Of a stretch of DNA of 64,000 bases, positions 2,125-58,668 are shown piece by piece. Origin of the DNA: an uncultured delta proteobacterium (GTDB lineage Bacteria; Desulfobacterota; DSM-4660; Desulfatiglandales; HGW-15); the NCBI GenBank assembly GCA_963707125.1, contig CAVPOU010000004.1, forward strand, positions 511,234-575,233, given 5' to 3'. The translations under genes and the position numbers were made by a program. The notes under the pieces were generated by a model. It saw nothing but the letters and a program-made list of their open reading frames with translations, was not told where the DNA came from and ran no database searches. Each line of letters opens with the position of its first letter. Within the stretch, counting starts at the first letter, position 1.

Positions 2125-2331
2125 AAGACAGCAGAAAGCAGGTCCACGGCGCAGGGTGCACCGGAGGACAGAAAAAGTAATCAGTAATCAGTTGCCAGTG
2201 ATCAGTTAGGAGGACCGGTGGCACGGACAAACGCGAATTTCGTTTGTCCGTGGGCGTGCACGATGCAACGGACAGCGCGTCAACGCCCAATGTCCAATGA
2301 TAAATGCTCAATGCCAAATGTTCAATGCTCC
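2125..2331. repeat. Composite intergenic repeat block between acn and gltA: AATCAGT heptads (2176-2207), H1 hairpin (2217-2256), CAATGnn heptads x6 (2287-2331)
   Basis: Stem CACGGACAAAC (2222-2232) pairs with GTTTGTCCGTG (2242-2252). The run caatgtc/caatgat/aaatgct/caatgcc/aaatgtt/caatgct is contiguous. Confidence 0.85.
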
Positions 2332-2342
2332 AGGAGGTTCTC

Positions 2343-3524
2343 ATGGCACAGGCGGTTAGCGTAAAAAACACGGGATTGCGGGGAGTCGCGGTTGCCGACA
2401 CCAAGATCAGCTTTATTGATGCTGAAAAGGGCGTCCTGATCTATCGGGGCTATCGGATTGAAGAACTGGCCGAGCAATCGAGCTTCATGGAGGTCGCTTA
2501 CTTGCTTCTAAACGGGTTGTTGCCTGGCGCAGGGGAACTCGAAAAGTTCGAGAGACAGGTGGTGGAAGCAAGAGAGGTCCCTCCCTATGTGTACGCGTGC
2601 ATGAAGCACTGGCCGAAAGAGGCAAAGCCTATGGATGTCTTGCAGGCTTGCGTTCCTGTGCTCGCCATGGCGGACCCGGAACTTGCAGAGGAGAGCAGGG
2701 AGGCCAATGTCAGGATGGCGATCCGGCTGATCGCTCGAGTGCCGGTTGTGGTCGCGGCGTGGCATCGCATCCGGAACGGGCTGGAGCCCCTCGCTTCAGA
2801 CCCGAGTCTCTCTCACACGGCAAATTTCCTCTGGCTGCTCCACGGGAAAAGACCGGATGCGGAAACCGCCAGAGACCTGGACGTGTGTCTCATTCTTCAC
2901 GCGGACCACACGTTCAACGCTTCGACCTTTGCCTGTCGCGAGGTGGTATCCACCCGGGCCCACATGTATGCCGGGATTGCCGCGGGGATCGGGGCCCTGT
3001 CAGGGAGCCTGCACGGAGGCGCCAACGCCGAGGTGATGAAGATGCTCCTGGAACTGGAGTCCGAGAAGGACATCCCGGGATGGGTGAAGGCCAGGCTGGA
3101 CAAGGGAGACAGGATCATGGGCATGGGCCATGCGGTCTACAAGACCATGGATCCCAGGGCAAGGTTCCTCAAAGACATGGCGTTTCGGATAGGGAAAAAG
3201 ACCGGACAGAGCCGATGGCACGAGCTGTCCACGCAAATCGAAACAGCCGGGCTGGAAGAGTTCAAGAAGAGAGGGAAGACGGAGATCCAGCCCAATGTCG
3301 ATTTCTTCAGTGCGCCCGTCTACCACATGATGGGCATTCCCAGGGACCTGATGACCCCGATTTTTGCTATCTCCAGAGTGGCAGGGTGGTGCAGCCACAT
3401 CATTGAGGAGAAATTTGCTGAAGCCCAGGAAAAACCGGCGCTTTACAGACCGCAGGCGGAGTATGTGGGACAGTATTGCGGGCTCATGGGGTGTGAGTAT
3501 TCTCCTCCTGAGGAGAGGAAATAG
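2343..3524 (+). CDS. gltA: Citrate synthase (Si-type, ~390 aa)
   Basis: Start moved from 2304 to ATG 2343, which is preceded by AGGAGG (2332-2337). Motifs: LILHADH, GALSGSLHGGAN, MGMGHAVYK, DFFSAPVY. Confidence 0.9.
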   Translation: MAQAVSVKNTGLRGVAVADTKISFIDAEKGVLIYRGYRIEELAEQSSFMEVAYLLLNGLLPGAGELEKFERQVVEAREVPPYVYACMKHWPKEAKPMDVLQACVPVLAMADPELAEESREANVRMAIRLIARVPVVVAAWHRIRNGLEPLASDPSLSHTANFLWLLHGKRPDAETARDLDVCLILHADHTFNASTFACREVVSTRAHMYAGIAAGIGALSGSLHGGANAEVMKMLLELESEKDIPGWVKARLDKGDRIMGMGHAVYKTMDPRARFLKDMAFRIGKKTGQSRWHELSTQIETAGLEEFKKRGKTEIQPNVDFFSAPVYHMMGIPRDLMTPIFAISRVAGWCSHIIEEKFAEAQEKPALYRPQAEYVGQYCGLMGCEYSPPEERK

Positions 3525-21323: not shown

Positions 21324-21399
21324 TTGGAGTATAGGAGTACTGCAGTATTGGAGCGATGGGGTTTACCATTACTCCATTACTCCGATACTCCATTACTCC
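21324..21399. repeat. Inverted octamer arrays: GGAGTAnn x3 (21324-21353) facing nnTACTCC x4 (21366-21399)
   Basis: 'agta' recurs every 8 nt on the left and 'tactcc' every 8 nt on the right. The right array overlaps the last codons and stop of the upstream subunit gene. Confidence 0.85.
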
Positions 21400-22795
21400 G
21401 TTTCTTCATTTTCTCGTATTCCCACAAAGCCGCCATGGTTTTTGCTGCTCTCTCAGGGGTGGGGACATTGATCAGAGCGCCTCCTTCTTCGAGACGGCGC
21501 ACCTCCTCATCCCAAATTCCAGGAGGAGCGATCAGACAGGCGACAACAGGCTTCTGCTGTTTCCATTTCAGCAAGAGCTCGGAGAAGCCCGATATCGCGT
21601 CCCTGTTTGCCGATGCGAACATCATGAGGATCAGGATGGCATCCACATCGCTGTCCTCCATCACCGCCCTGATGATACCCTCGATCGCCGAAGCGTTATA
21701 CCATGCCGGCCCCATGTCCACGGGGTTGGTACGCAGGGCGAGAGGGGGAAGGAGTTCATTGATCACTCGCTGAGTTTCAGGATGGAACGTGGCGATCTCC
21801 ATCCCATCGGCCTCACAGACGTCCGAGGCCGCCATCCCAGGGCCTGCTTGTCCGGAAAGGATCGCAACTTTCCTGCCCTTAGGAAGCGGACAAAGGGCCA
21901 GAGCCCGGGCTGCATCCAAAAGCCTTTCTGCACTGTCCACGTAGAGGACCCCTGACTGTTTGAGAGCCCCTTCATAGATTTCATGCCTTCCGGCTAAGGA
22001 GCCCGTGTGAGAAAGAGAGGCTTGATCTCCAGCGCGAGAACTCCCGGTTTTGTATGCAACAACAGGTTTCGCGAAACGGGTTTGCTTCGCCGCCTCCATG
22101 AGCCTCCTCGGTTCATCGATGCCTTCAAGATAAAGAGCAAGAACCCGTGTGTCCGGATCGCCCATCAAATAGGTGACCATTTCGGGGAAGTCGACATTGA
22201 GACGGTTCCCCAGGCCAACGATCTTGCTGACGCCTGCGTTCTGTCGCATGGCCATGAAGCCCATGAGATGAGAGATGCCTCCACTCTGGCTCACCAGGGC
22301 GATACCCCCTTTGGGCAGCCATGAGAACTCAGGCGTAAAGGAAGCGTTCAGGTGGATGTGAAGATTGACCATCCCGAAAGTGTTCGGGCCAATGACCGGG
22401 ATGCAGGCCTTGTTTGCCAGATCGGCCAGGGTGTTCTGGAGAAGGGTTCCCTGGGAATCGTCGATTTCCCTGAAGCCCGCGGAGATCAGCACAATGCCTT
22501 TCACCCCTTTCCGAGAACACTCCTGAAATATTCCTGGAACCAGCTTTGCAGGCAAGACGACAATGGCAAGATCAATGGCACCCGAGAAATCCGCAATCGA
22601 TGAAACCGCGGGAAGACCCATGACCGACTTGGCACCCGGGTTAACAGGAACGATCGTCCCTTTGAAGCGACCGGAGGTCAGGCTTTTCATCACGTGGAAC
22701 CCGAGCTTGTCGGGATTTTCTGAAGCCCCGATCACTGCAACCGTATGAGGGTTGAATAGGGTTTTCAGATTTTGGAGCAAAACAGGATTGCTCAT
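21377..22795 (-). CDS. Acetyl-CoA synthetase (ADP-forming) alpha / CoA-binding + ligase-CoA subunit
   Basis: NPHTVAVIGASENPDKLG...IVPVNP...LISAGFRE. Start at ATG 22795 is preferred; the ORF is open to 22831. Confidence 0.8.
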   Translation of the reverse strand: MSNPVLLQNLKTLFNPHTVAVIGASENPDKLGFHVMKSLTSGRFKGTIVPVNPGAKSVMGLPAVSSIADFSGAIDLAIVVLPAKLVPGIFQECSRKGVKGIVLISAGFREIDDSQGTLLQNTLADLANKACIPVIGPNTFGMVNLHIHLNASFTPEFSWLPKGGIALVSQSGGISHLMGFMAMRQNAGVSKIVGLGNRLNVDFPEMVTYLMGDPDTRVLALYLEGIDEPRRLMEAAKQTRFAKPVVAYKTGSSRAGDQASLSHTGSLAGRHEIYEGALKQSGVLYVDSAERLLDAARALALCPLPKGRKVAILSGQAGPGMAASDVCEADGMEIATFHPETQRVINELLPPLALRTNPVDMGPAWYNASAIEGIIRAVMEDSDVDAILILMMFASANRDAISGFSELLLKWKQQKPVVACLIAPPGIWDEEVRRLEEGGALINVPTPERAAKTMAALWEYEKMKKRSNGVSE

Positions 22796-23653: not shown

Positions 23654-23897
23654 ATGGAGTATTGGAGTACTGGAAAAAATCCTCACAGTCGTCACTCCCG
23701 CGAAGGCGGGAGTCCAGAACTTCTTGATTCTCCTGGATTCCCGTTTTCACGGGAATGACGGAAAAGGGCGTTTTCCGACTTTTTGCGAAGCGTCAAGGGT
23801 GACTATCGAAAAAAATGGAGTGCTGGAGCAATGGGAAAGGAATCGTGCACAACACGCCTCCATCACTCCAGTACTCCAATACTCCAGTACTCCGCAG
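23654..23897. repeat. Composite element: GGAGTAnn octamers (23654-23673), conserved core (23690-23800, reverse copy of 26775-26920), nnTACTCC octamers (23858-23897)
   Basis: Read directly. Core contains tcactcccgcgaaggcgggagt, ggattcccgttttcacgggaatgacgg and gactttttgcgaagc. Confidence 0.8.
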
Positions 23898-31747: not shown

Positions 31748-32052
<305 letters not shown>

Positions 32053-32480: not shown

Positions 32481-32552
32481 TGCGTACTCCTTTATTTTTT
32501 TCTGCTTACTTTTTCCTCTTTCTGCTTACTCCTTACTGCTTACTGCCTACTG
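32481..32552. repeat. TACTGC/TTACT word array, reverse-complement partner of 31987-32052
   Basis: gcgtactcc...ctgcttact...ctgcttactccttactgcttactgcctactgg. Confidence 0.75.
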
Positions 32553-41055: not shown

Positions 41056-41244
41056 ATGATCAGGAGTTTAAAGCAGCGCCTGACCCTTTTTTTCCTTCTT
41101 CCTGTAGCCATCATGCTATTTGTCACGGGCTATCGGGTTTTTGTGTTGGCAAAGAAGACCATGATGGGAGAGTGGAAGGAGTCTTCTCTTTCGTGTTTTC
41201 CAAATTTCGCCTGTCCTGAGCAGTGTCGAAGGGTGCTTTCGTGA
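41056..41244 (+). pseudogene. Possible remnant of a membrane sensor N-terminus
   Basis: MIRSLKQRLTLFFLLPVAIMLFVTGYRVFVLAKK resembles the start of sensor kinases/cyclases, but the ORF ends after ~60 aa. Confidence 0.3.
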
Positions 41245-41416: not shown

Positions 41417-41460
41417 TTGACAGGATATTATATATAACGCATTATATATGCGCATTATTA
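41417..41460 (+). promoter_or_regulatory. Putative mazEF promoter/operator: TTGACA plus tandem ATTATATAT(A)RCGC repeats
   Basis: TTGACA at 41417-41422. Direct repeats at 41427-41440 and 41441-41453, plus a partial third copy. Confidence 0.45.
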
Positions 41461-41481: not shown

Positions 41482-41724
41482 ATGAGTACGGTAAGGATGA
41501 ACATCACGATCCCTGAGCAGTTGGCCCGCAAGCTGGACCAGATGGTAAGCCCAAGAAAAAAAAGCACCTTCATTGTTAAGAGTTTGGAGGAGTGCATTCA
41601 CAGGATGGAACGCGAAGAGCTCAAAGCCAATCTTAAGGAAGGATACAAAGTAAGAAGGGACGAAGGGCTAAGGATTGCCGGGGAGTTTCGAAAAGTGGAT
41701 CTGGAGGGATGGGATGAGTATTAG
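41482..41724 (+). CDS. mazE: RHH/CopG-type antitoxin
   Basis: 80 aa. MNITIPEQLARKLD is a ribbon-helix-helix start. The gene overlaps the toxin start. Confidence 0.75.
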   Translation: MSTVRMNITIPEQLARKLDQMVSPRKKSTFIVKSLEECIHRMEREELKANLKEGYKVRRDEGLRIAGEFRKVDLEGWDEY

Positions 41725-42058
41725 AAGAGGGGAGATCTATATTGCAGCCCTTGATCCTGTGGTCGGCAGAGAAATCTCCAAGACGCGTCCTGTGGTGGTG
41801 GTTTCTAACGACTTGAATAATCAATTCGCGGCCACGGTGACTGTACTCCCGATCACCTCTATGAATCTTGACAAGATTTATCCTTTTGAGGTTTTTCTGC
41901 CAAAAGGCTCCGGCGCCCTACCCAAGGATTCGAAAGTCAAAGCAGATCAGATACGCACCCTCGATAAAGCTCGGATAGCCAAACTGTTGGGGAAAGTGGA
42001 TCAGAAAAAAATCACGGCGATCGATAAGGCGGTGAAAATACATTTGGGGCTGGAGTGA
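41714..42058 (+). CDS. mazF: MazF/PemK-family endoribonuclease toxin
   Basis: IRRGEIYIAALDPVVGREISKTRPVVVVSND...VLPITS. ATG 41714 overlaps the antitoxin stop. Confidence 0.85.
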   Translation: MSIRRGEIYIAALDPVVGREISKTRPVVVVSNDLNNQFAATVTVLPITSMNLDKIYPFEVFLPKGSGALPKDSKVKADQIRTLDKARIAKLLGKVDQKKITAIDKAVKIHLGLE

Positions 42059-42504
42059 TGAAAACAAGAATACAGGAGACTGAATACAGTATGAAAGCAG
42101 ACCACAGAGGACCCCAGTTGAATAGTCCTTCGCCCCAGTGAAATAGGCCTTCAGGATTTCACCCCGATGGAATAGAACTGCAACATCATTCCATAGGGCA
42201 GGCGGGGCAAAATTCAACGGGGCAAGCCGGATTATCAGGATTATTGTGTTTCGAAACATAAAGAGCAAACATCTTTGATCCTGTTAATCCTGTCTAAAGA
42301 AGCTCGCATCTTACCTCAGTTCGCTCGACCCCTCATCGATCGGAAATTGCGCATGCAATGGGGGCGTGGACTCGTGAAATTCTGGAACAAGCTTGATGGG
42401 TTCAGAAGTTTCAGGGTACTAATGCGAGAGGCACAAGCAGGCACGGACAAACCTAAATCGTTTGTCCGTGCCACCCAGTCTTGTCACTCGTTACTCGTCA
42501 CTGA
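42059..42504. repeat. Composite repeat block: ACAG heptads, expanded H2 hairpin (42112-42228), GGATTAT/ATCCTGT inverted words (42229-42298), H1 hairpin (42439-42476), CACTCGT heptads (42484-42504)
   Basis: Read directly. H1 reads gcacggacaaacctaaatcgtttgtccgtgccaccc. Confidence 0.8.
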
Positions 42505-43905
42505 CTACGGTTTGAGGCCCAATTCGTCGATGCGGCCGAGCAGGGTTTTGTAGCTCACGCCAAGCACTTCAGCTGCCTTTTTCCTGTTCCACTGAGTTTT
42601 GGCGAGCACATCCACGATGGCCTGGCGCTCCGCTTCAGAGACATAGGTCTTGGTAATTTTCTTGATAGAAAAACGGTTTTCCCTAATCAGCCTCTCGATT
42701 TTCTCATCGGACCAACCGACGACCGTCCCCAAGTCTTCCATTGAGGCGTGTTCCCCCTTCTTCTGGAGACTCTCCAGGCTGAGCTCCCTGAACACAAACT
42801 CCCAGTCTTTAAGCGCGACCGCGCGGCGCACCACATTTTCGAGCTCTCTCACATTTCCCGGCCACTGGTAGGATTGAAGATGCTTCAGTATCTTCCCAGG
42901 GATCTCCAGGATGTCTTTCTTCAGCTCAAGACAGTACTTGTTGACAAAATAGTAAATCAGTATGGGGATGTCCGGTTTCCTTTCCCTCAAGGGCGCAGCC
43001 TGGATATGAATCACATTAAGGCGGTAGAAAAGATCTTTTCTGAAGAGACCGTCCCGCACCTTTCTCTGAAGATCCGAATTGGTCGCAGCCACAACCCGGG
43101 TATCCACGAACTTGTCGTAGATCCCTCCAAGCCTAGCGAAAGCTTTATCTTCAAGGACCTGGAGGAACTTTGCCTGGAGAGAGAGCGAGAGGTCTCCGAT
43201 TTCATCTATGAAGAGCGTCCCGTTGTGGGCCAGCTCCAGTCGCCCAGGCTTGTTCTTGTGGGCGCCTGTAAACGCCCCCTTCTGAAAACCAAAGACCTCG
43301 CTTTCAAGAAGTTCATCCGGCAAGGCACCGCAGCTGATTTTTACCAGAGGCCCCTGGTTTCGCTGCGAATGGTAATGGACGGAGCGCGCGATCAGCTCTT
43401 TTCCGGTGCCCGTCTCCCCGGTGATCAGCACAGTAATGTCTTTGGCCGCTACCTTTTGAATCTTCAGTTTGATGTTTCTGATCGCCTCACTGTGCCCGAT
43501 AATGACCGGATAGTCCGGTCGCATTTTGTATTCATCCCTGAACTTCAAAGCGCTCTGTACTGTCTCGGCAAATTCTGCGCCCTCCAGATCCGTTCCAATG
43601 GGGTAGATCCCTTCAAAAGGCACGATCTCCGGACCCTCGGCCAGCGGCACTCCGCCACAGGAGGTAAGAACAGGCATGAAAGGGGTGATGATTTTCAATT
43701 TGTGAATGCACTGGATGCATGTCTCCGCATCGAGCGAAGGGCCGAGGACAGCCAGGTCAGGCTTCAAGGCTGCCAGCTCATCAATGGCCACATTCGGCCT
43801 TGCCGTAAAGCAGTGGACGAATCCGAACTGCTTGACTCTTTCAGCCCAGGCCTCGGCTAATGAAGGATCTGAATCAATGACAAGGACGTTAATTCCATCG
43901 GCCAT
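42505..43905 (-). CDS. Sigma-54-dependent transcriptional activator (NtrC family) with degenerate receiver domain
   Basis: GETGTGKE, GAFTGA, C-terminal HTH AAEVLGVSYKTL. The receiver region reads KPDLAVLGPSLD where DLVLLD is expected. Confidence 0.85.
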   Translation of the reverse strand: MADGINVLVIDSDPSLAEAWAERVKQFGFVHCFTARPNVAIDELAALKPDLAVLGPSLDAETCIQCIHKLKIITPFMPVLTSCGGVPLAEGPEIVPFEGIYPIGTDLEGAEFAETVQSALKFRDEYKMRPDYPVIIGHSEAIRNIKLKIQKVAAKDITVLITGETGTGKELIARSVHYHSQRNQGPLVKISCGALPDELLESEVFGFQKGAFTGAHKNKPGRLELAHNGTLFIDEIGDLSLSLQAKFLQVLEDKAFARLGGIYDKFVDTRVVAATNSDLQRKVRDGLFRKDLFYRLNVIHIQAAPLRERKPDIPILIYYFVNKYCLELKKDILEIPGKILKHLQSYQWPGNVRELENVVRRAVALKDWEFVFRELSLESLQKKGEHASMEDLGTVVGWSDEKIERLIRENRFSIKKITKTYVSEAERQAIVDVLAKTQWNRKKAAEVLGVSYKTLLGRIDELGLKP

Positions 43906-44254
43906 GGCGCAAAACCCTCGGCTTTCAGCGGTCAGCTGTCAGCTTCAAAGAAAGAATACAGAAGACAGAATTCAGAATCAGAACCCCAATCACGAAAACA
44001 CCCCAGTTGAATCGTCCCCCTGACGGGGGAATTCAACGGGACAGGCGAAAACTGGAAAACACGAAAGAACATTGCACCACGGACAAGCAAAATCAGCTTG
44101 TCCGTGCCACCCAGTCTTTTCAAGCTTGTCCGCTCTTAGCAAGCATCCCCATTGTTACCACGGACAACCATCCTCCCGAGGCAGATAAGAATCAGTTTGT
44201 CCGTGCCACCGCATCGCAATCTCTATGCTCTCTGCTCCACGCCCTACGCTGTCT
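43906..44254. repeat. Composite repeat block: CAGCGGT words, ACAGAAG heptads (43950-43985), H2 hairpin (44000-44050), GAAAACnn octamers, two H1 hairpins (44077-44111, 44158-44210)
   Basis: Read directly. Confidence 0.8.
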
Positions 44255-46675
44255 TCATGCCGCCAGGGCGCGCGAAATAGCCTGGCTCAGCTCCCCGATG
44301 CCGCAGGGCTTCGTGATGTAGCCCTTGATCAAGCGCTTGGTGCTTTCGTCAATCCCGTTGGGCCCGCTTTCCTCGTAACCGGACACCATGATGATCCTGG
44401 CATCAGGATCTATTTCCACAATTTTTCTGGCACACGTCACCCCGTCCATCTTAGGCATGCCCCTGTCCATGAGCACCACATCCGGGTCCCACTCACTGTA
44501 GTTCTGCAAAGCGTCCAAAGGCCTCTCCACCGGGATGGCTTCGTACCCGAGTTTCTTGCAGACGGCGGTCAAGGCATCAAGGGCCGGCTTTTCATCGTCA
44601 ACAATCAAAACCTTCTCGCCCCTCCCGGGAATGATCTCTCTTGCAGGTTCCCCCATTTCGGTGGTCTCGGGCGCTGCATAGGAGAAGGAGATTCTGAAAT
44701 TAGCCCCTTTGCCAGGTTTCGACGACACAGAGATATCCCCTTTGTGTTCCTGCACAATCCCGTGCACCGTTGAAAGGCCCAGTCCCGTCCCTTTCCCCAC
44801 TTCCTTCAGAGTGAAGAAGGGGTCGAAGATTCTCTCAACCGTCTTCTCATCCATGCCGATCCCTGTGTCACTCACGACGGCTGTCACCTTGTTTCCCTTT
44901 CTCTTGGCCTCAACAGTCAACTTGCCACCGTTCGGCATGGCATCGTTCGCATTGCTGTAAAGATTCATGAAGACCTGACTCAGCAGAGACCTGTTGCCCT
45001 TCACGAAGAGGTCCTTGTCCAGGCTGAGCACGATTTCGATGTTCCTGTTCAAAACCCTCGCGATGATTTCATGGGTTTGCTTGATCACATCGGCAAGGTC
45101 GAGGTGAACCATCTGGTATCCGCCACCCCTCCTGGAGAAATGCAGGAGGTTGTTGATGAGATCCACGCCTTTTTCCACTGAGTCGAAGATGTTGGTCGTG
45201 AGATCCGCAATGTCCGGTTTCTCGCCGCAGACCAGTTCCATATACTCGGTATTGCCTGAAATCGCCTGCAAGATGTTTCGAAAATTATGGGCTATCCCTC
45301 CAGCAAAAGCCCCGATGGATTCCATCTTCTGGGCCACGAGAAGCTGCTCCTGCAGAGCCTTCTGCTCCCTTTCCGCCTTTTTCTTTTCCGTCACATTATC
45401 AAAGATCGCCACGATCTCTCCGGAAGGCAGCCGGTAAATGTAGTATTCTCTCCAACCAGTGATTTCTTCGCCTTCGTGAAACGTGATGGATCCGCTCTCC
45501 GGGTTTGCGGTTCGCCAGACTCGCCTGAAACTCTCCAGGATGTCAGATCCTTTGTAGAAGGGCAATATTTGAAAGAGCGTCTTGTTACCGATGATCTCTT
45601 TGTCGTCAATGTTCTCAATTTTCCGAAAAGCCCGGTTCAGATTGAGAATGGTGAAATCTTCGCCGTCATTCACCGTTCTGAACACCATAACGCCGCTGCT
45701 CATGTGATCGAAAATGGCCTTAAAGCGCACCTCGCTCTCGCGAAGCTTTTCCTGGGTCTCCATGAGAACCTTGGTCCGATCCTCCACAAGGCTCTCGAGA
45801 TTGGAATACAGGGTCGCGTTCTCTATGGCGATGGCTGCAGGGCTGCTCAGTGCCGACAGCAGGGAGAGGTCCTCTTTTCGGAAACCATACGGTTTGCTCA
45901 CAGAGTCCACGTAGATGGCCCCTCGAATTTTGGACTTACTCATCAGAGGCACGCACATCACGGACTTGATCTTCATGAGCTCCATACTTACGGAACGATC
46001 GTCCTTGTCCTCCCTCATCGTGTTGGACATCATCACGGCTTTGCCTTCTTTGAGGACCTTGTTGACTACCGTCCGGCTGTAGGGCCGGGCTCCGTGCTTG
46101 GAGTCGTCTTTCGACCTTGAAATCACCCGGGTGATCTTGCCTGATCGGGGATCGACCAGCAGGATAGCTCCCCGATCGATTCTTTTTAGAAGTTCAAAAA
46201 TCTGATCCAGGATCTTCTCGAAGAGATCGCTCAAATCAAGGGACTGCATCAGCATCTTGGAGACGCTGTAAATCAGTTCGAGATTTCTCAGAGAGGTCTT
46301 GGGCCGATCCGTTTCCACCGTGTCATTGAGAGGATTGGACGGATCAACAAATTTCTGAAGCGAAGCGATATCCCTTTTGTACTCCTTGCCCAGGGAGAAG
46401 AAAACATTGCCGATGCCGATCGGCACCCCTTCCCTCACCTCGAAGACCTTGCCGGCGTTTATCTGTTTGTCCCGGATATAGGTCCCGTTGGTGCTCCGCA
46501 AGTCTTCAATGAAGTATTTCTCGCCTTTTTGGACAATTTTGAGATGCCTGCGGGAGACATGCCTTTCCTTGATCTGGATATGGTTGTCCGGCGCCCGCCC
46601 CACAAAGATGACCTCTTCCTTGAGATCATGGGTCTCGCCCTTCTCGGGTCCACTCAAAAAAAAGAGTTTGCTCAT
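44255..46675 (-). CDS. Soluble hybrid sensor kinase: FHA-GAF-PAS-HisKA-HATPase-REC
   Basis: FHA N-terminus (VIFVGRAPDNHIQI...STNGTYI). H-box FAGGIAHNFRNIL. N/G boxes YSNANDAMP, DTGIGM, GTGLGLS. REC domain VLIVDDE...LMDRGMPKMDG...TKP. No TM segments seen. Confidence 0.85.
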   Translation of the reverse strand: MSKLFFLSGPEKGETHDLKEEVIFVGRAPDNHIQIKERHVSRRHLKIVQKGEKYFIEDLRSTNGTYIRDKQINAGKVFEVREGVPIGIGNVFFSLGKEYKRDIASLQKFVDPSNPLNDTVETDRPKTSLRNLELIYSVSKMLMQSLDLSDLFEKILDQIFELLKRIDRGAILLVDPRSGKITRVISRSKDDSKHGARPYSRTVVNKVLKEGKAVMMSNTMREDKDDRSVSMELMKIKSVMCVPLMSKSKIRGAIYVDSVSKPYGFRKEDLSLLSALSSPAAIAIENATLYSNLESLVEDRTKVLMETQEKLRESEVRFKAIFDHMSSGVMVFRTVNDGEDFTILNLNRAFRKIENIDDKEIIGNKTLFQILPFYKGSDILESFRRVWRTANPESGSITFHEGEEITGWREYYIYRLPSGEIVAIFDNVTEKKKAEREQKALQEQLLVAQKMESIGAFAGGIAHNFRNILQAISGNTEYMELVCGEKPDIADLTTNIFDSVEKGVDLINNLLHFSRRGGGYQMVHLDLADVIKQTHEIIARVLNRNIEIVLSLDKDLFVKGNRSLLSQVFMNLYSNANDAMPNGGKLTVEAKRKGNKVTAVVSDTGIGMDEKTVERIFDPFFTLKEVGKGTGLGLSTVHGIVQEHKGDISVSSKPGKGANFRISFSYAAPETTEMGEPAREIIPGRGEKVLIVDDEKPALDALTAVCKKLGYEAIPVERPLDALQNYSEWDPDVVLMDRGMPKMDGVTCARKIVEIDPDARIIMVSGYEESGPNGIDESTKRLIKGYITKPCGIGELSQAISRALAA

Positions 46676-47548: not shown

Positions 47549-47872
47549 CAGTAGCGATCAGCAACAGCCAGTAATCAGTGATCAGTAATCAGTGATCAGT
47601 GATCAGTGATCAGTAATCAGTAATCAGAAGAAGCTATCAGCCCTTCGACCATGCTCAGGGTCTGCGACAGGGCAGGCGAAAACTGGAAGACACGAAAGAA
47701 GGTCCTCTCACAGACAAAAAAATTCGTTTGTCCGTGCCACCAAGTCTTTTCTCGCCTCACTGCTTTGCCCGCTCTTGATGAGCATCCGTCACTCGATCGT
47801 TCTATGCGTTTATCTATACTGGCCTGGCCTTTGGAAAATATTCCTCTGTGCTCTCTGTGAGAGACAAGGTTT
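47549..47872. repeat. ATCAGTR heptamer array (8 contiguous units, 47574-47629) followed by CCTTCGA-CTCAGGG motif (47641-47665), GAAAACTGG/CACGAAAG words and H1 hairpin (47707-47743)
   Basis: 'atcag' starts at 47574 and recurs every 7 nt eight times. Confidence 0.9.
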
Positions 47873-50188
47873 TCAGCCGCTGATTTCTTTCAAAATCCTG
47901 CGGGCGTCGTCGGCTCCCTTGAAATTCGGGTCCAGCTGCAGGGCCTTTTCAAAATAGTCCTTGGCTTTTGCTTTGTCATTGTTTTTGTACTGGGCGAGTC
48001 CCATGTGATGGTTGGTCACCGGGTTCCCCGGATCCCTGGCAAGGCTGTCCTGGAACTCCGCAATCGCATTCAGCAAGCTGCCCTTCATGTAGTAGATATA
48101 ACCCAGGGTGTCCATCACCGCTGAACTGCTAGGGAGTTGTTCCTTTGCGATTTGTGCAAAGGTCAGGGCTTCGTCGATATTCCCGCCTCTCTCTGCAAGG
48201 TTCCATGCCAGGTTGTTGGCGGCCGGGCCAAAATCCTTCTTGATGTCCAGGGCTTTTCGATAGTAGGTTTCCGCTTTCTGGCCGTCCCCCTTCTGGTCGT
48301 AAATCGTTCCTACGGCCATGTACCCTGCGAGATACTTGGGATTCTTGGCAATCACACCCTCGTACTCCTTGATCGCTTCGTCGAATCGCTTTTCCCTGGC
48401 ATAAATCTCAGCCAACGCCACATAGGGAGCAGGATTGTTGGGTTCAGTTTCAATCGCTTTCTTGAACCGATCCTGTGCGGCCTTCGGATCCTTCTTCGCC
48501 AGGAAGATGTTCCCCTCCAGATACTCAATGAGGGCAAGACTCGCCGGTGAATCTGTGACCTTCTTCTTGTGGTCCTCACAGGCCTTCATGGCTTCATCGA
48601 ATTTCTTGTCCCGAACATTGAGCCCCACGATCAGAGCCAGGGCATCCGTCTGCTGAGGATTGAGTTCAAGGGCCGTGTTGAAGGATTTGAGGGCTTCGGC
48701 CAGACGGTTAGTAAGGTTGTAGATGAGCCCCAGCTGAATATAGGCGGGCGCATAATCCGCATCCGCCTGGATGACCTTGCTGTAAATCTCCTCTGCCCCT
48801 TTCATGTCTTTTTCAAGAACTTTCAAGCTCCCCAGATGCATCAGGACGCGGGTGTTTCGAGGGGCGATTTTCATCGCTGCATCGATCTGCTGCCGGGCAA
48901 GATCCGCATTCCGTTCATTGAGATAGAACTCTGCAAGAATGAGCCTTGCCTCCAGAAGTCCCGGATAAAATTCCACCGCCTTCAGAAGATCCTGCTGGCC
49001 CATTTTGGGATCGCCTTTCCCAATGTGAGACAATCCCCTGAAGTAGTGGGCCATGGAATTGCGAGGGCTCTCTCTCACCACCACGTCAAACCTTTCAAGG
49101 GCGTTCCCAAAATCCCTTCTCACGAGAAAGATCCGGCCCTTGAGAAAGTTGGCATCCACATGCCCCTTTTCTTTTTCGAGCACCTTATCGACGGTGGCTT
49201 CCGCGTCCTTGACTTTGTTGAAGTCAAACTGGAGTTCTGCCATGTTGACCAGCACGTTCGGGTCATCCTTCTTGATTTCCGCTGCCTTGTGCATAGCCTC
49301 CAGGGCGCGGTCATAGGATTTCATCCGCGCATAGTAAGCCGCCAGGTTCATCAGGGGCGTCACATCTCCCTGGGGCGCCGCCTCCACGGCCTGTAGATAA
49401 GTCTTCTCAGCCTGCTCGAAATTCTTTCTGCTCTCGTAGAAAAGGGCAAGCACGTGAAGGGTTTCATAAGTGGAGCCTGAGGCCTGGATCATCCTCTTCA
49501 GCTCCGCTTCGGCCTTGTCCCAGTCCCCTTTGCCGGCATAGATGCGCGAAAGCTCAATGTAAGGGACGCCTGAGGCAGGATCCAGCGCTATGGCCCTGAG
49601 GTAGGCCTCCTCTGCTTTGTCGGCTTCTCCTTTCAGGAGAAGCAGCCGGCCAAGGGAGAGCTGCGTGTTGAAATGGTTCGGGTTCAAAGAAGCCCCCTTT
49701 TCAAGGGTCTTGATCGCGCCGTCCAGATCTCTCTCCTGAACCTGAACACCGGAAAGGAGGCTCAGGGCTTCCACGCTGTCAGGCGACTTGGTGAGAATGA
49801 GCTCAGCCTTCTTTTTCGCTTCTTCGGTCTGTCTCCCCAGCAGGAGCATCTGACCTAGCTTGAGTTGGGCCTTGAGGTTGTCCGGGTTTGCTGAAACCGC
49901 CCTGGTGTAAGCTTGAAAAGCCTCCCTGGGCTCTTTCAGCTTCAGATAGGTCTCTCCTAATTCCAGATAGGCAGCGTCATGTTGGGGATCCAGCTGAACC
50001 ACGTTCTTGAGCTCGATGACCGCTTTCTTGAGCTCATTCTTTGAGATGTATTCCTTTGCCTTTTCGAAATGCTTCGCCTTCTTTTCCTCTTTGCTGGCGC
50101 ATCCGCTCCCAAAAAACAGAGTGAAAGAAACCAGCATCACCCAAACAAAGCCAAGAAAGAATCGTTGATGTTTCATGTCCCGCCTCAT
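47873..50188 (-). CDS. TPR-repeat lipoprotein, PrsT-like (PEP-CTERM-system type)
   Basis: Start at ATG 50188 follows GGGGGA. Signal peptide with lipobox FGSGC. About 20 TPR units across ~770 aa. Confidence 0.75.
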   Translation of the reverse strand: MRRDMKHQRFFLGFVWVMLVSFTLFFGSGCASKEEKKAKHFEKAKEYISKNELKKAVIELKNVVQLDPQHDAAYLELGETYLKLKEPREAFQAYTRAVSANPDNLKAQLKLGQMLLLGRQTEEAKKKAELILTKSPDSVEALSLLSGVQVQERDLDGAIKTLEKGASLNPNHFNTQLSLGRLLLLKGEADKAEEAYLRAIALDPASGVPYIELSRIYAGKGDWDKAEAELKRMIQASGSTYETLHVLALFYESRKNFEQAEKTYLQAVEAAPQGDVTPLMNLAAYYARMKSYDRALEAMHKAAEIKKDDPNVLVNMAELQFDFNKVKDAEATVDKVLEKEKGHVDANFLKGRIFLVRRDFGNALERFDVVVRESPRNSMAHYFRGLSHIGKGDPKMGQQDLLKAVEFYPGLLEARLILAEFYLNERNADLARQQIDAAMKIAPRNTRVLMHLGSLKVLEKDMKGAEEIYSKVIQADADYAPAYIQLGLIYNLTNRLAEALKSFNTALELNPQQTDALALIVGLNVRDKKFDEAMKACEDHKKKVTDSPASLALIEYLEGNIFLAKKDPKAAQDRFKKAIETEPNNPAPYVALAEIYAREKRFDEAIKEYEGVIAKNPKYLAGYMAVGTIYDQKGDGQKAETYYRKALDIKKDFGPAANNLAWNLAERGGNIDEALTFAQIAKEQLPSSSAVMDTLGYIYYMKGSLLNAIAEFQDSLARDPGNPVTNHHMGLAQYKNNDKAKAKDYFEKALQLDPNFKGADDARRILKEISG

Positions 50189-50301
50189 TAATCCCCCTTT
50201 TCTGTATCTACCATGGCTAAGTTCCACGGATTCCCGTGCACCCTTCACCCCGACAAAGTCAGCGCGGCCTGACAGTCCAACTTGATGAACCAAAGGGACT
50301 A

Positions 50302-50316
50302 GCAAGCTTCGGGCCA
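50302..50316 (-). promoter_or_regulatory. Sigma-54 (-24/-12) promoter TGGCCC-N5-TTGCT
   Basis: The reverse complement of 50301-50316 reads TGGCCCGAAGCTTGCT, ~110 nt upstream of ATG 50188. Confidence 0.6.
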
Positions 50317-50639
50317 CAGAACCGGAGAGGAACCCGCATCGAAGCATCCGCCTGCGCGTAGCCGCTTCGGCTAAGGCGAGCGAAATTCGAAAACCAGAAC
50401 TAAGGCTAATGCATAGATATTTAACTTGGTATTGTAGCGACTAAGCAAATTAAAGTCAAATTCTTTGTTTTAACCACACGCTTTAGCTGCTTTCTGCCTC
50501 TCTGATATCTCAATGACAAGACGCAAGCATGCTTTATCATATTTACAAATCAATGGACAATGCAGCCCAAGTGTTATAGGCTTCTTGTATGAAAAGGCTC
50601 AGGCCCACGCTAGGTTTTTGTTGAGAAAGGAATTAAGCT

Positions 50640-52136: not shown

Positions 52137-52145
52137 CAAAATCTA

Positions 52146-52220
52146 GTAAGCAGTACGGAGTAAGCAGTAGGCAGAAACCAATACTCCCCTACTCCGGTAC
52201 TCCAATACTCCTGTACTCCA
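52146..52220. repeat. Word arrays in the tRNA-Gly/tRNA-Cys spacer: AGTAnnn heptads x4 (52146-52174) then TACTCCnn octads x5 (52181-52220)
   Basis: 'agta' recurs every 7 nt, then 'tactcc' every 8 nt. Confidence 0.85.
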
Positions 52221-52226
52221 AAATTT

Positions 52227-55222: not shown

Positions 55223-56383
55223 CTATAAGGTGACGGCTCTGATTCGTTGCATGGCTTCTTCGAGGCGTTCCTTTTTCTGTGTCAGCGCGATGCGAAAATA
55301 CCCCTCTCCCGGCTCGCCGAAACCATTGCCCGGCGTGACGACCACACCCTTTTCAAGCAGGCGTGTAGCAAGCCCTGCTGAACTGTAGCCCCTTGGCACT
55401 TTGATCCAAAGATAGAAGCTCGCCTTGGGGGTATCCAACTCAAAGCCTGCCTTTTTCATTTCAGAGACCATGAGGTCCCGCCTTTCCGTGTAAACGTCGA
55501 TCATCTTCTGCACGCAGGACTGGTCACTCCGGAGTGCCGTGATCCCTGCAAACTGGATGGCCTGAAAAACTCCTGAGTCCACGTTGCTCTTGATGGCGCT
55601 GAGGCCGTCTATCGCTTCCCTGTTCCCCGCTGCAAAGCCGACCCTCCAGCCTGTCATGTTGTAAGTCTTGGACAGAGAATGGAACTCGATACCCACTTCT
55701 TTTGCACCCTTCGCCTGCAAAAAACTCGGTGGCCGATAGCCGTCATAGGCGACCTCAGAGTATGCCGCATCATGGCAGACAAGGATGTGATTCTTGGCCG
55801 CAAACTCCACAACCCTCTCGAAGAACGCCAGGTCTGCAACGGCAGCCGTGGGGTTGTTCGGATAGTTAATGAACATCACCTTGGCGCGGCGCACCACGTC
55901 AACGGGTATGGCCTCAAGATCAGGCAAAAAGCCTTTCTCCCTGAAGAGAGGCATGGTGTGAGTCTCGCCGCCGGAGAAAAGAGTCGCGATATGGTACACA
56001 GGGTAACCCGGGCTCGGGACCAAAGACACGTCGCCCGGATTTATGAAGGCAAGGGGCAAGTGGGCAATCCCCTCCTTGCTCCCGATGAGGGTTAGAACTT
56101 CTTTTTCGGGATCGAGGTCAACGCTGAAACGTTTCCTGTACCACTCCGCCACTGCAGCTCTGAACTCAAGCATGCCCGAATAGGACGGGTACCGATGGTT
56201 GGCCGAATCTCCCACTGCTTTTTTCATCGCCTCGATGATATGAGCCGGGGTGGGAAGATCCGGATCACCAATGCCCAGGTCGATGATGTCCACCCCTCTT
56301 GCTCTCAGTTCCGTCTTTTTCCTGTCGATCTCTTTGAAGAGATAAGGGGGGAGTTTGCGCAAGCGATCTGCTTTTTCAAACAT
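55223..56383 (-). CDS. dapL: LL-diaminopimelate aminotransferase (class I aminotransferase)
   Basis: [16 protein letters not shown]...[13 protein letters not shown]...[14 protein letters not shown]. Confidence 0.8.
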
Positions 56384-56701
56384 GGTCTCTCAATCTCCTT
56401 CGATAAGTGCCTAAAATTGAAAGGCAAAGAACTCAAGGCCTGAATGAGCATGAGTGCCTGGAGTGTATAAATTTGAAAGGTCAGGTCAATAAAATACACG
56501 AAAGAACCTACACTCACGGACAAACAAAGTTCGTTTGTCCGTGCCACCCGTCTTGCTCACTGATCACTGGTGACTGATTACTGGTTTCTTGCTGTCTTCT
56601 TTTCTTGCCGTGCACCCTGCGCCGTGCGCCGTGCACCCCTCCTATTAAACCCTTTAGCGCACTTTAGACATTTTAGCCTACGGCCCGGAGGGGCACTTTA
56701 G
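56384..56701. repeat. Composite block: H1 hairpin (56514-56550), CACTGRT heptads (56558-56584), GTGCRCC heptads (56608-56638), CACTTTAG words (56650-56708)
   Basis: Read directly. Confidence 0.8.
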
Positions 56702-57505
56702 TCACTTCAATCCCAACACATCCTGCATATCATAGAGCCCAGAGGGTTGATGGACAACCCATGCAGCGGCTCTAACAGCGCCCCTGGCAAAATTGTCCCG
56801 GTTGTGGGCCCTGTGGATGAGTTCCAGTCGCTCTCCGATGCCGCCGAACAGGATGGTGTGTTCTCCTGTAATGTCGCCTGCTCTCCAGGTTTGGATTCCG
56901 ATCTCCTTGGACGTTCTCTCCCCGATAATGCCTTTTCTGTGGTAGACCGCAACCTCATCAAGATCACGGTTCGTAGATGCCGCCAGGATCTGAGCGAGAC
57001 GCATGGCAGTGCCGCTCGGAGCATCTTTCTTGAACCGGTGATGAACCTCGAGGATCTCCATGTCATAATCTTTTCCCAGGATCCTGGCCATCTCCCCGGC
57101 AATCTTGAACATCACGTTCACGCCGACGCTCATGTTGGGGGACATGACGCAGCGGGTGCTCTTCGCAAGGGCCTTTACCTGGTCGAGCAAGTTCCCGCTC
57201 ATGCCTGTCGTTCCGATGACCACGGCCAGGTTAGCGGTGGACGCAAGTTTGAGGTTTTCCACCGTTGCCTCAGGCGCTGTGAAATCGATGATCACCTCTC
57301 CGAGGCCGATGACCTCCCTGAGGGATCCGGCCACCTTGATGCCGAAGTTCCCAAGGCCTGCCACCTGCCCCACGTCGGATCCCACACTTGGATGATCCGG
57401 CCGCTCGAAAGCGGCGGCCAACTCAACGTCGGTGCTCTGACGAATCATGTGGATGATTCGCCCGCCCATTCGGCCCGCAGCACCAGCAACAATGGCTCGG
57501 ATCAT
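56702..57505 (-). CDS. dapB: 4-hydroxy-tetrahydrodipicolinate reductase
   Basis: GAAGRMG and EVHHRFKKDAPSGTA. Confidence 0.9.
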   Translation of the reverse strand: MIRAIVAGAAGRMGGRIIHMIRQSTDVELAAAFERPDHPSVGSDVGQVAGLGNFGIKVAGSLREVIGLGEVIIDFTAPEATVENLKLASTANLAVVIGTTGMSGNLLDQVKALAKSTRCVMSPNMSVGVNVMFKIAGEMARILGKDYDMEILEVHHRFKKDAPSGTAMRLAQILAASTNRDLDEVAVYHRKGIIGERTSKEIGIQTWRAGDITGEHTILFGGIGERLELIHRAHNRDNFARGAVRAAAWVVHQPSGLYDMQDVLGLK

Positions 57506-57750
57506 GACACAACCCCCTACGAAACCCTATCTCCCGTTTGGTGGCACGGACAAGCGAACTGAGCTTGTCCGTGCCGCCAGAGATCTTGTGCTTCTTCGTG
57601 CTCACTTCCCATTGTCCAACTTCCTGTATCCTTTCACGGACAAACAGAATTCGTTTGTCCGTGCCACCCTCATTTCTTTGCATTAACCAGCATGCAGAAT
57701 CCACCCACGGACAAGCAAAGTTCGCTTGTCCGTGCCACCGTATGCCTGCT
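57506..57750. repeat. Three H1 hairpins in 245 bp (57540-57578, 57635-57668, 57705-57740)
   Basis: Each reads CACGGACAARC-loop-GYTTGTCCGTGCC. Confidence 0.9.
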
Positions 57751-58626
57751 CTACTTGATCAGTCCGAAGTCTTTCAGGGCCGATTTCAGCTTTTCCTGGT
57801 TTGCCTGGGCCATGGGATACAGAGGCAATCTCATCTCCCCGTCAATCTTGCCCAGCAGAGCCAGGGCCGTCTTGACCGGGATGGGGTTGGTCTCGATGAA
57901 CATCGCCTGACACAAAGGAAGAAGCTTGTAGAAGAGCTGTCGTGCCCGTTCGACCTTGCCCTCTTCCCAGGCTTTGACCATATCCGCATTGTCCTTCGGC
58001 ACAATGTTGGCCACAACGGATATCACTCCCTTTCCTCCAATCGCTAGGATCGGAAGGGTCAGGTTGTCGTCACCGGAGAGAAGCGTAATCTTATCCCCTG
58101 CAAGCTGAACCACTTCCGCCATCTGACCGAGACTGCCGGAGGCTTCCTTGATGGCCACGATCTCCGGCATCTCTGCGAGGCGCGCCACGGTCTGGGGGAG
58201 CATGTTGACGCCCGTCCTTCCCGGGATGTTGTAGAGCACCTGGGGCAGGGGAACCGCTTTCGCAATGGCCTTGAAGTGCTGGTACAGCCCTTCTTGAGTC
58301 GGCTTGTTGTAATAGGGCGTCACCTGGAGGGTCGCATCCGCCCCTATTTTCTTGGCGTGCTCGGTCAGCTCGATCGCTTCCGTCGTGCTGTTCCCGCCTG
58401 TTCCTGCAATCACCGGCACCCTTTTTCTCACCGCCTCGACGGCAATCTCCAGGGTTCGCTTGTGTTCTTCCATGTCGAGCGTTGGAGACTCGCCGGTCGT
58501 CCCTACGGGAACGATGGCGCTGGTGCCGTTCTCAATCTGAAATTCGATGAGCCGCCGGAAGCCTTCCTCGTCCACTTTCCCCTTCATGAAAGGCGTGACG
58601 ATCGCCACAATGGATCCTTTGAACAT
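57751..58626 (-). CDS. dapA: 4-hydroxy-tetrahydrodipicolinate synthase
   Basis: ATG 58626 follows GGAGGAGG. Motifs GTTGESPTL and AIKEASG. Confidence 0.9.
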   Translation of the reverse strand: MFKGSIVAIVTPFMKGKVDEEGFRRLIEFQIENGTSAIVPVGTTGESPTLDMEEHKRTLEIAVEAVRKRVPVIAGTGGNSTTEAIELTEHAKKIGADATLQVTPYYNKPTQEGLYQHFKAIAKAVPLPQVLYNIPGRTGVNMLPQTVARLAEMPEIVAIKEASGSLGQMAEVVQLAGDKITLLSGDDNLTLPILAIGGKGVISVVANIVPKDNADMVKAWEEGKVERARQLFYKLLPLCQAMFIETNPIPVKTALALLGKIDGEMRLPLYPMAQANQEKLKSALKDFGLIK

Positions 58627-58668
58627 AACCAATCCTCCTCCCCTCTTGATTGAAAGAACAAAAAACAA

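Follow-up and report, generated by a model that had tools for sequence, protein, structure and literature searches.

H1, a tagged hairpin repeat in intergenic DNA of an uncultured Desulfobacterota genome, has the anatomy of a GT[AG]G REP family

As the text of Di Nocera et al. (2013, PMC3733652) describes them, repetitive extragenic palindromic (REP) sequences of the GT[AG]G class are short extragenic stem-loops with an unpaired tetranucleotide at one foot and stems of 6 to 13 bp. The same text reports sub-families whose stems differ by complementary changes, differences in abundance from one related strain to another, and occurrence as singletons, as head-head, tail-tail or head-tail dimers 20 to 100 bp apart, and as clusters. 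It places families in R. baltica (Planctomycetes), O. terrae (Verrucomicrobia, mostly with GTGG tags) and the Deltaproteobacteria D. alkenivorans and G. uraniireducens, and it notes that some families are common to distant organisms. Where REPs are defined in Quentin et al. (2018, PMC6006769), and likewise in PMC3733652, the descriptor is GTAG or GTGG lying 0 to 2 nt 5' of a 7- to 20-nt stem. Here we analyze H1, a hairpin family in a 64,000-nucleotide stretch of DNA from an uncultured delta proteobacterium (contig CAVPOU010000004.1; the whole stretch is called the window below). We conclude that H1 is probably a REP family of the GT[AG]G-tagged superfamily residing in the genome of an uncultured member of the Desulfobacterota, and we propose that a REP-associated tyrosine transposase (RAYT) mobilizes it.

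The H1 unit is about 35 to 40 nt long. A GGTGG tag abuts an 11-bp stem, CACGGACAARC / GYTTGTCCGTG, which encloses a short variable loop. This matches the REP descriptor, with GTGG directly 5' of the stem foot and on one side only, and the unit fits the REP size class (imperfect palindromes of about 20 to 65 nt). The other traits listed above for GT[AG]G REPs, a superfamily that includes the E. coli REP/BIME and Pseudomonas REPs, are shared as well. Two details differ: the H1 loop is 7 to 9 nt, whereas REP loops are commonly 2 to 5 nt, and the H1 tag is extended to GGTG[GC]. CACGGACAARC was not found in the text or supplements of PMC3733652, its consensus figure apart, so H1 could equal a family listed there. 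A literature search for the H1 11-mers returned only unrelated primer sequences.

The original prediction, made by a model from the sequence alone, gave stems of 10 to 11 bp and loops of 8 to 10 nt. We correct these values to 11 bp (12 to 13 bp when loop-proximal pairs extend the stem) and 7 to 9 nt. It also described one loop of about 30 nt and a conserved tail. The long-loop copy (44158) exists, but its loop measures 25 nt and its stem carries one C/T mismatch. As for the tail, its CCACC part is the reverse complement of the tag: TTGTCCGTGCCACC stands on one side of all nine window copies and is the GGTGG tag abutting the stem on the other strand. The remainder, an AGTCTTKTC extension beyond the tag, is present in only four of the nine. 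Beyond tag and hairpin, the flanks of the window copies have nothing in common. Stems are perfect in seven of the nine copies and degenerate in two (44159-44210 and 47709-47741). The reported compensatory change between AAAC/GTTT and AAGC/GCTT is real: at stem position 10, five copies have an A-T pair (the decayed 47707 copy is one of these), three have G-C and one has a mismatch. Folded as single-stranded DNA, the copies are predicted to reach -6.8 to -18.4 kcal/mol, with z scores of -3.1 to -7.6 against shuffles.

We searched the window for half-sites, defined as CACGGACAARC with at most one mismatch, and found 17. The expected number was 1.6, and the maximum in 100 shuffles was 5. These half-sites resolve into nine hairpins, each lying where the original prediction had placed it. 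A covariance model was trained on eight copies, with the 44158 copy held out, and was run over the 64-kb window with filters off. The model recovered all nine copies, the held-out one at 28.1 bits. The rest of the window scored at most about 11 bits, and the scan revealed no further copies there. Tagged strands scored 54 to 63 bits, versus 29 to 33 bits for the opposite strand; hence, H1 is asymmetric.

All nine copies (about zero expected) are intergenic, and they occupy six gaps of the 64 kb. Each sits 3' of a stop codon. None lies at 2.3 to 42.4 kb. Their arrangement comprises four singletons, a tandem pair (44078/44159) and a trimer in the gap at 57506-57750, and an inverted partner is missing at five of the six loci. 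Both orientations are represented, as had been claimed, with the tag on the minus strand in seven copies and on the plus strand in two. Judged by hand against the Pfam-supported genes of the window, the tag is on the sense strand in eight of nine.

Comparison with relatives revealed that copies come and go. The window is about 85% identical in nucleotide sequence to the metagenome-assembled genomes (MAGs) CAVPDE01 ("delta proteobacterium") and CAZOLJ01 ("Desulfobacteraceae"), and its DapA protein is 81 to 94% identical to homologues in MAGs of Deltaproteobacteria, Desulfobacteraceae and Desulfatiglandaceae. Exact look-ups of the proteins at its two ends gave no record. In one relative (L056), the dapA-dapB gap contains copies 2 and 3 of the trimer, with an identical copy-3 stem; copy 1 is absent and about 80 nt are missing. 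The same relative is without the 56515 copy in the orthologous gap. Another (L087) is without the 44078 and 44159 copies in the orthologous gap and carries its own copy at another site. A third (L083) shares the 2217 copy, with tag, stem and loop identical. Between genomes that are about 85% identical, each side has gained copies. Neither pattern nor model found a copy in 11 to 17 kb of syntenic DNA from L189 (86.5% identical) and L190 (83.5%), or in the more distant L192 (69%) and L194 (73%). Across the orthologous copies, 66 of 66 stem bases are identical, in flanking spacers that are 54% and 63% identical. We conclude that the element turns over between species and that the copies retained are held constant. 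In the dapA-dapB gap of L194 (11100-11140) there is also a hairpin, GTTTGTCCCGG-TCAATGA-CCGGGACAAAC, that shares the words GGACAAAC/GTTTGTCC with H1. It is untagged and has its arms in the opposite order, and it may be a coincidence or a distant relation.

An exact hairpin scan of one genome per species returned at least 108 stretches, which we call the H1 loci. Of the matches listed, many are in Phycisphaerae (with dozens of copies in CSMAG_2420 and OFTM243), and others are in Planctomycetia (a complete chromosome among them), in Brocadia, in four MAGs of Desulfobacterota and in one of Hydrogenedentota. The tag and a 16-base core are shared between the Planctomycetota and the Desulfobacterota MAGs. 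In these matches the GGTG[GC] tag accompanies 99 of 116 copies outside the window (one-sided in 95, two-sided in 4), and loops and flanks are genome-specific. Single untagged matches in Bacteroidia, in Verrucomicrobiota and at a gammaproteobacterial contig end may be due to chance. The last of these (L052 138-228, at the end of a CAJXVN01 contig) is an H1-like hairpin beside CTGTCTCTTATA, which we take to be a Nextera adapter end, and the "gammaproteobacterial" match may therefore be an assembly artifact. A scan of viral contigs for the H1 hairpin gave no matches and hence no sign of a phage vehicle. Clustering of open reading frames (ORFs) across the 108 H1 loci found, as recurrent neighbors, only large housekeeping families: response regulators, ABC ATPases, epimerases and short-chain dehydrogenases/reductases.

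The stem covaries in this larger set. For the covariation test, partner arms were located through similarity to the consensus and not through pairing, and 500 shuffles were made. Two-sided changes occur in 7 of the 11 stem pairs, in 33 such cells versus 6.1 in the shuffles, and none of the 500 shuffles reached the score. In slid registers, pairing drops to 20 to 44%. Covariation is thus supported, and H1 also occurs beyond this region, in other genomes that include congeneric MAGs; the original prediction came through on the two points where it could have failed. Anchoring on the tag alone revealed compensated variants of the stem (CACGGGCAAGC/GCTTGCCCGTG, CACTGACAAGC/GCTTGTCAGTG and CACTGGCAAGCG/CGCTTGCCAGTG) and also other stems behind GGTG[GC]. 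Stems of 8 bp or more follow GGTG[GC]CAC at 9 of 10 sites in the window, at 146 of 218 in the H1 loci and at 179 of 221 (81%) in the RAYT loci described below, versus 1 to 3% of control CAC sites.

In CSMAG_2420 (Phycisphaerae; JAUWNI01, L012-L101), 36 H1 copies have near-identical tag, stem and loop. With flanks judged by eye, most of these, about 23, adjoin a further tagged hairpin, CACTGCT-CAAG-AGCAGTG-GCACACC, with the tags outward. Read on its own tagged strand, the loop of this second hairpin is CTTG. The composite, about 120 to 170 nt long, consists of GGGTGC-H1, the second tagged hairpin and a CCATCAATCGATGG palindrome (e.g., L027 1761-1900). Some CSMAG_2420 copies have terminal inverted repeats (CTAGTGCTCTGTC...). 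The left boundary lies exactly at the tag.

A transposase accompanies H1 at one locus, L017, from Phycisphaerae OFTM243. The Y1 transposase encoded there matches Pfam PF01797 and scores 96.8 bits against the NCBIfam REP_Tyr_transpos equivalog (NF047646), versus a cut-off of 80. Its best match in the PDB is E. coli TnpA-REP (4er8), and it has the HUH (MPEHVHL), WQ and YxHxNP motifs. Hairpins of the form GGGTGC-CACTGGTGG-CTTGC-CCACCAGTG flank the gene, and 1 kb from it, at 1802-1889, lies an inverted H1 doublet whose 18-nt arms are perfectly complementary. More than 4000 proteins of about 191 aa belong to the family, and among the 120 listed nearly every one is single-contig.

We fetched 80 metagenome loci of this family (L109-L188) via the protein alone. 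A tagged hairpin lies at most 250 nt upstream of the RAYT gene in 59 of 75 cases and an inverted one lies downstream in 63 of 75; both are present in 49 of 70. The bracket has the form GGGTG[GC]-CAC[TG]G...-CTTGY-...C[AC]GTG and stands 40 to 100 nt off the gene on both sides. Its stems covary (CACTGGCGG, CACTGCTGG, CACTGGTGG, CACGGGCGG and CACGGGCAG), and the tag GGGTG[GC], the foot CAC and the loop CTTGY are constant. The hairpins that bracket this RAYT family thus have the tag and foot of H1, and a large, almost unstudied Planctomycete family is tied to a regular bracket, GGGTG[GC]-CAC...CTTGY. The same layout is known from the REPtron, a RAYT with inverted REP brackets such as E. coli TnpA-REP (PMC3479197). 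Here the difference is that the brackets are CACTGGCGG-CTTGY-CCGCCAGTG and variants, not H1, and that the window has no REPtron. Tandem runs of hairpins were seen at four of the RAYT loci (L127, L133, L152 and L181).

H1 also resembles the REPIN-RAYT systems (Bertels and Rainey 2011, PMC3116915), a REPIN being two inverted REPs that replicate as a single unit. Both have doublets with outward tags (for H1, window copies 2 and 3, the L017 doublet and the CSMAG_2420 composite), RAYTs that are nearly always on one contig (for the L017 family, among the matches listed) and populations that differ between related genomes. Unlike REPINs, most H1 copies in the window are singletons or tandem, not symmetric doublets.

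How might a RAYT act on such a repeat? In the mechanism that we propose, the tagged H1 strand would fold when the DNA is single-stranded. A RAYT, an enzyme of the HUH/Y1 type whose gene would lie elsewhere in the genome, would recognize the tag and the stem foot and would cut and rejoin the strand there, and units would in this way be copied, excised and rearranged within intergenic DNA. The expected products are singletons, tandem pairs, inverted pairs and clusters. Copies in transcribed spacers, such as that between dapA and dapB, would also form a stable RNA hairpin, which by analogy with E. coli REPs may secondarily affect mRNA stability. We infer both that a RAYT acts on H1 and that one is present in the genome from which the window comes.

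Several observations weigh against this proposal. Searches by regular expression, phmmer and hidden Markov model found no RAYT or other Y1 gene in the 64-kb window and no RAYT in about 150 kb of Desulfobacterota H1 loci. An intact RAYT is present at only 1 of the 108 H1 loci (L017). The brackets in the 80 RAYT loci are of the CACTGGCGG, CACTGCTGG or CACGGGCGG types and not H1 stems; one H1-like hairpin was seen in those loci, and none of their RAYT genes was seen flanked by H1 itself. The GGTGC / GGGTGC form of the tag does not fit GT[AG]G in the strict sense. Perfect orthologous stems could reflect a function at the level of the host and not transposase activity. Hence, with no RAYT in the window and none seen flanked by the exact H1 hairpin, mobilization of H1 is inferred rather than shown. 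The proposal does make a prediction: H1 is the only tagged hairpin in the Desulfobacterota loci, so it should bracket any RAYT found there. A C-terminal remnant of a Y1 transposase (WQRSAYDHV...YIVDNPVRAGL) at L055 1517-1789, on the minus strand and with no flanking hairpins, is probably a decayed RAYT-like gene.

The original prediction had called the family "REP/MITE-like," a MITE being a miniature inverted-repeat transposable element. The REP half of this label is well founded: H1 is an extragenic palindrome with a tag, it forms dimers and a trimer, it has sub-families, it turns over, and its tag is that of RAYT-associated hairpins. We find no support for the MITE half, since neither terminal inverted repeats nor target duplications are present beyond the hairpin. 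As candidates in their own right, MITEs were rejected on the same grounds: flanks share nothing past tag and hairpin, and a filled site compared with its empty counterpart shows no duplication. IS200/IS605 ends and MITEs are comparable to H1: among them are subterminal hairpins with a 5' guide tetranucleotide that a Y1 transposase recognizes, and small non-autonomous units. They differ in that H1 copies have no tnpA or tnpB between them, no distinct left and right ends, no target-site duplication and, apart from the hairpin, no terminal inverted repeats.

No new kind of system is revealed here. One aspect goes beyond ordinary REP families: two phyla have the core, and its distribution among congeners is patchy. 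Among the matches listed, copies abound in some Phycisphaerae and are present in Brocadia, Planctomycetia and a small Desulfobacterota clade, and congeners 84 to 87% identical are without H1 in the syntenic DNA compared. A 16-nt core shared by two phyla yet patchy among congeners raises the question of horizontal versus vertical origin. Perhaps a single REP core, GGTG[GC]-CACGGACAARC...GYTTGTCCGTG, crossed phyla together with, or in search of, a RAYT, and copies were then fixed and strongly constrained at orthologous sites such as dapA-dapB? We offer this tentatively, as an idea with the odds somewhat against it. If true, it would mean horizontal spread of a REP-RAYT system, a kind usually described as vertically inherited; REPIN-RAYT systems are reported to be mostly so (RAREFAN preprint, 10.1101/2022.05.22.493013), and the distribution of H1 differs from theirs in this respect.

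H1 might instead be mainly an RNA-level cis element, a 3'-end or intercistronic hairpin that serves as a terminator, an exonuclease block or a processing site. The host would then keep it for gene regulation, and its sequence would be conserved for recognition by a specific RNA-binding protein. The placement of the window copies would suit such a role: all nine follow stop codons, three of them inside the lysA-dapA-dapB row, and eight have the tag in the sense orientation. Orthologous stems are perfectly conserved beside diverged flanks, G-T pairs occur in the stems, and the 245-bp dapA-dapB gap folds far better than its shuffles (z = -6.3). Nevertheless, we think this reading improbable. The copies lack T-runs, and the 19 terminator-like sites at 42-59 kb do not include any of them. 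The G-rich strand carries the tag in 8 of 9 window copies, but elsewhere there is no consistent bias (36 of 92 copies, and 6 of 12 in the two closest MAGs), and we treat the bias in the window as a small-sample effect. G-T mispairs (19) are about as frequent as A-C mispairs (14), so that no single strand is favored and folding as DNA or as RNA is not distinguished. Close relatives are without H1 at the same sites, and the one-sided tag is common to hairpins that bracket transposases. Nor does H1 match an Rfam family: at the gathering threshold the window contains only three tRNAs, and permissive settings gave only sub-threshold chance matches to microRNA models in the gap. Intrinsic terminators in particular are like H1 in being stable hairpins a few to 150 nt past stop codons. 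They were rejected, as the sequences after H1 stems are not T-rich and provide no U-tract; H1 also differs from them in that its sequence is itself conserved, its tag is one-sided, and it occurs inside an operon-like row and in inverted orientation.

We give similarly little credence to the idea that H1 copies are relics or passively spreading palindromes (remnants of an old invasion, units spread through recombination or replication slippage, or units moved by another transposase acting in trans), with no dedicated enzyme in the lineage and a tag that is merely inherited. The missing RAYT in the window and in the Desulfobacterota H1 loci would be explained in this way, and so would the two decaying copies out of nine and the patchiness among congeners; moreover, REPs and RAYTs do not always co-occur, according to the text of PMC3733652. 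Yet seven of the nine stems are perfect, and orthologous stems are unchanged beside flanks about 40% diverged, which unconstrained relics would not show. Gains in both directions between genomes about 85% identical also speak against relics. A RAYT gene is usually present in one copy, and the search covered only about 0.2 Mb of these genomes.

That H1 is a double-stranded operator, an inverted-repeat site for a dimeric regulator, is very improbable: the perfect, conserved 11-bp inverted repeats would suit one, but half-site spacing varies from 3 to 34 nt, the loop extends the stem in 67 of 117 copies versus 39 of 117 after shuffling (as suits a folded hairpin rather than a duplex of fixed geometry), stem positions covary, and the sites follow stop codons and are not at promoters. 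Two further candidates were rejected. A CRISPR array does not have both orientations, genes between units and irregular spacing (37, 46 and 56 nt, then kilobases), and in H1 the AAC/GTT that integron attC sites would have at their outer ends adjoins the loop.

We therefore keep to the reading of H1 as a REP family. For annotation, this puts a name to a conspicuous repeat of an uncultured, sulfate-reducer-like lineage and comes with a testable mechanism. Annotators can mask H1 rather than call small ORFs or small RNAs there.

The trimer lies in a lysine-biosynthesis gene row, all on the minus strand, with lysA upstream and an aminotransferase gene (55223-56383) downstream. Its 245-bp gap is the spacer from dapA (4-hydroxy-tetrahydrodipicolinate synthase; 57751..58668; Pfam PF00701, E 4e-105), the upstream gene, to dapB (dihydrodipicolinate reductase; 56702..57505; Pfam PF01113 and PF05173). 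Copy 1 (57706..57739, minus), a G-C variant, is 11 nt downstream of the dapA stop codon. It is in tandem with copy 2 (57635..57668, minus), an A-T variant. Copy 3 (57540..57578, plus) is inverted, with a perfect GGTGG tag at 57540-57544 and an imperfect CCGCC on the other side. The spacers are 37 and 56 nt, and owing to the inversion the tags of copies 2 and 3 point outward across the latter. The loops of copies 1 and 3 are related (GAACTTT versus GAACTGA), and long-range pairing of these two copies is predicted in the fold of the whole gap.

Of the other six copies, the one at 2217..2252 (plus; tag GGTGG at 2217-2221, arms at 2222-2232 and 2242-2252, loop GCGAATTTC) lies between an aconitase-family gene (170-2110) and a citrate synthase gene (2304-3524), and the 56515..56548 copy (minus) lies between dapB and the aminotransferase gene. 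The 42442..42475 copy (minus; arms at 42442-42452 and 42460-42470, tag, CCACC on the plus strand, at 42471-42475) is 29 nt 3' of the stop codon of a sigma-54 activator gene (42505-43905, minus), in the gap where that gene and a MazF toxin gene converge. Between the sigma-54 activator gene and a histidine kinase gene (44255-46675, minus) is the head-to-tail tandem pair, both members on the minus strand: a G-C variant at 44078..44111 and the degenerate long-loop copy at 44159..44210, which has its C/T mismatch at stem position 10 and an intact tag. The decaying copy at 47709..47741 (minus), downstream of a tetratricopeptide repeat gene (47873-50347, minus), has the 5' arm CACAGACAAAA, an intact tag-side arm at 47726-47736 and its tag at 47737-47741.

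Other repeats are found near H1. The original prediction that copies are always next to word arrays was not exact: tandem word arrays lie within 100 nt of six copies, and the 245-bp gap with its three copies contains no tandem array. The intergenic gaps of the window are crowded with tandem arrays of 7- to 8-nt words, about 60 rows in the output of the tandem-repeat program TRF (for example, at 47569-47627, 31987-32052, 32502-32552, 21366-21410, 23865-23893, 52145-52221 and 71-102). These arrays are reminiscent of the STRR (short tandemly repeated repetitive) heptamers of cyanobacteria. Congeneric contigs are also rich in arrays but use different words, and orthologous spacers are nearly unalignable between flanking genes that are about 85% identical.

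An accessory module, GGCGAAAACTGGAAAACACGAAAGAA, adjoins H1 at 44040..44069 (plus), and its ACACGAAAGAA word recurs at 47690-47700 and 56496-56506. The module (gene strand TTCTTTCGTGTTTTCCARWTTTCGCC) stands beside three H1 copies, at 44040-44069, 47670-47700 and 56496-56506, and alone at 41184-41215; hence, it is a separate repeat. CACGAAA-rich words related to the module fill spacers of relatives that have no H1 there (L087 and L190).

A toxin-antitoxin pair at 41482-42058 (plus) converges on the 42442 copy. It consists of a PemK/MazF toxin (PF02452, E 2e-32) 3' of a putative 80-aa antitoxin that has only a weak, sub-threshold HicB-like match, and an AT-rich 14-nt repeat (41427-41458) precedes it. 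Finally, a switch in both GC skew and gene orientation is seen along the window: skew is positive and genes are on the plus strand at 1-6 kb, and skew is negative and genes are on the minus strand at 42-64 kb.

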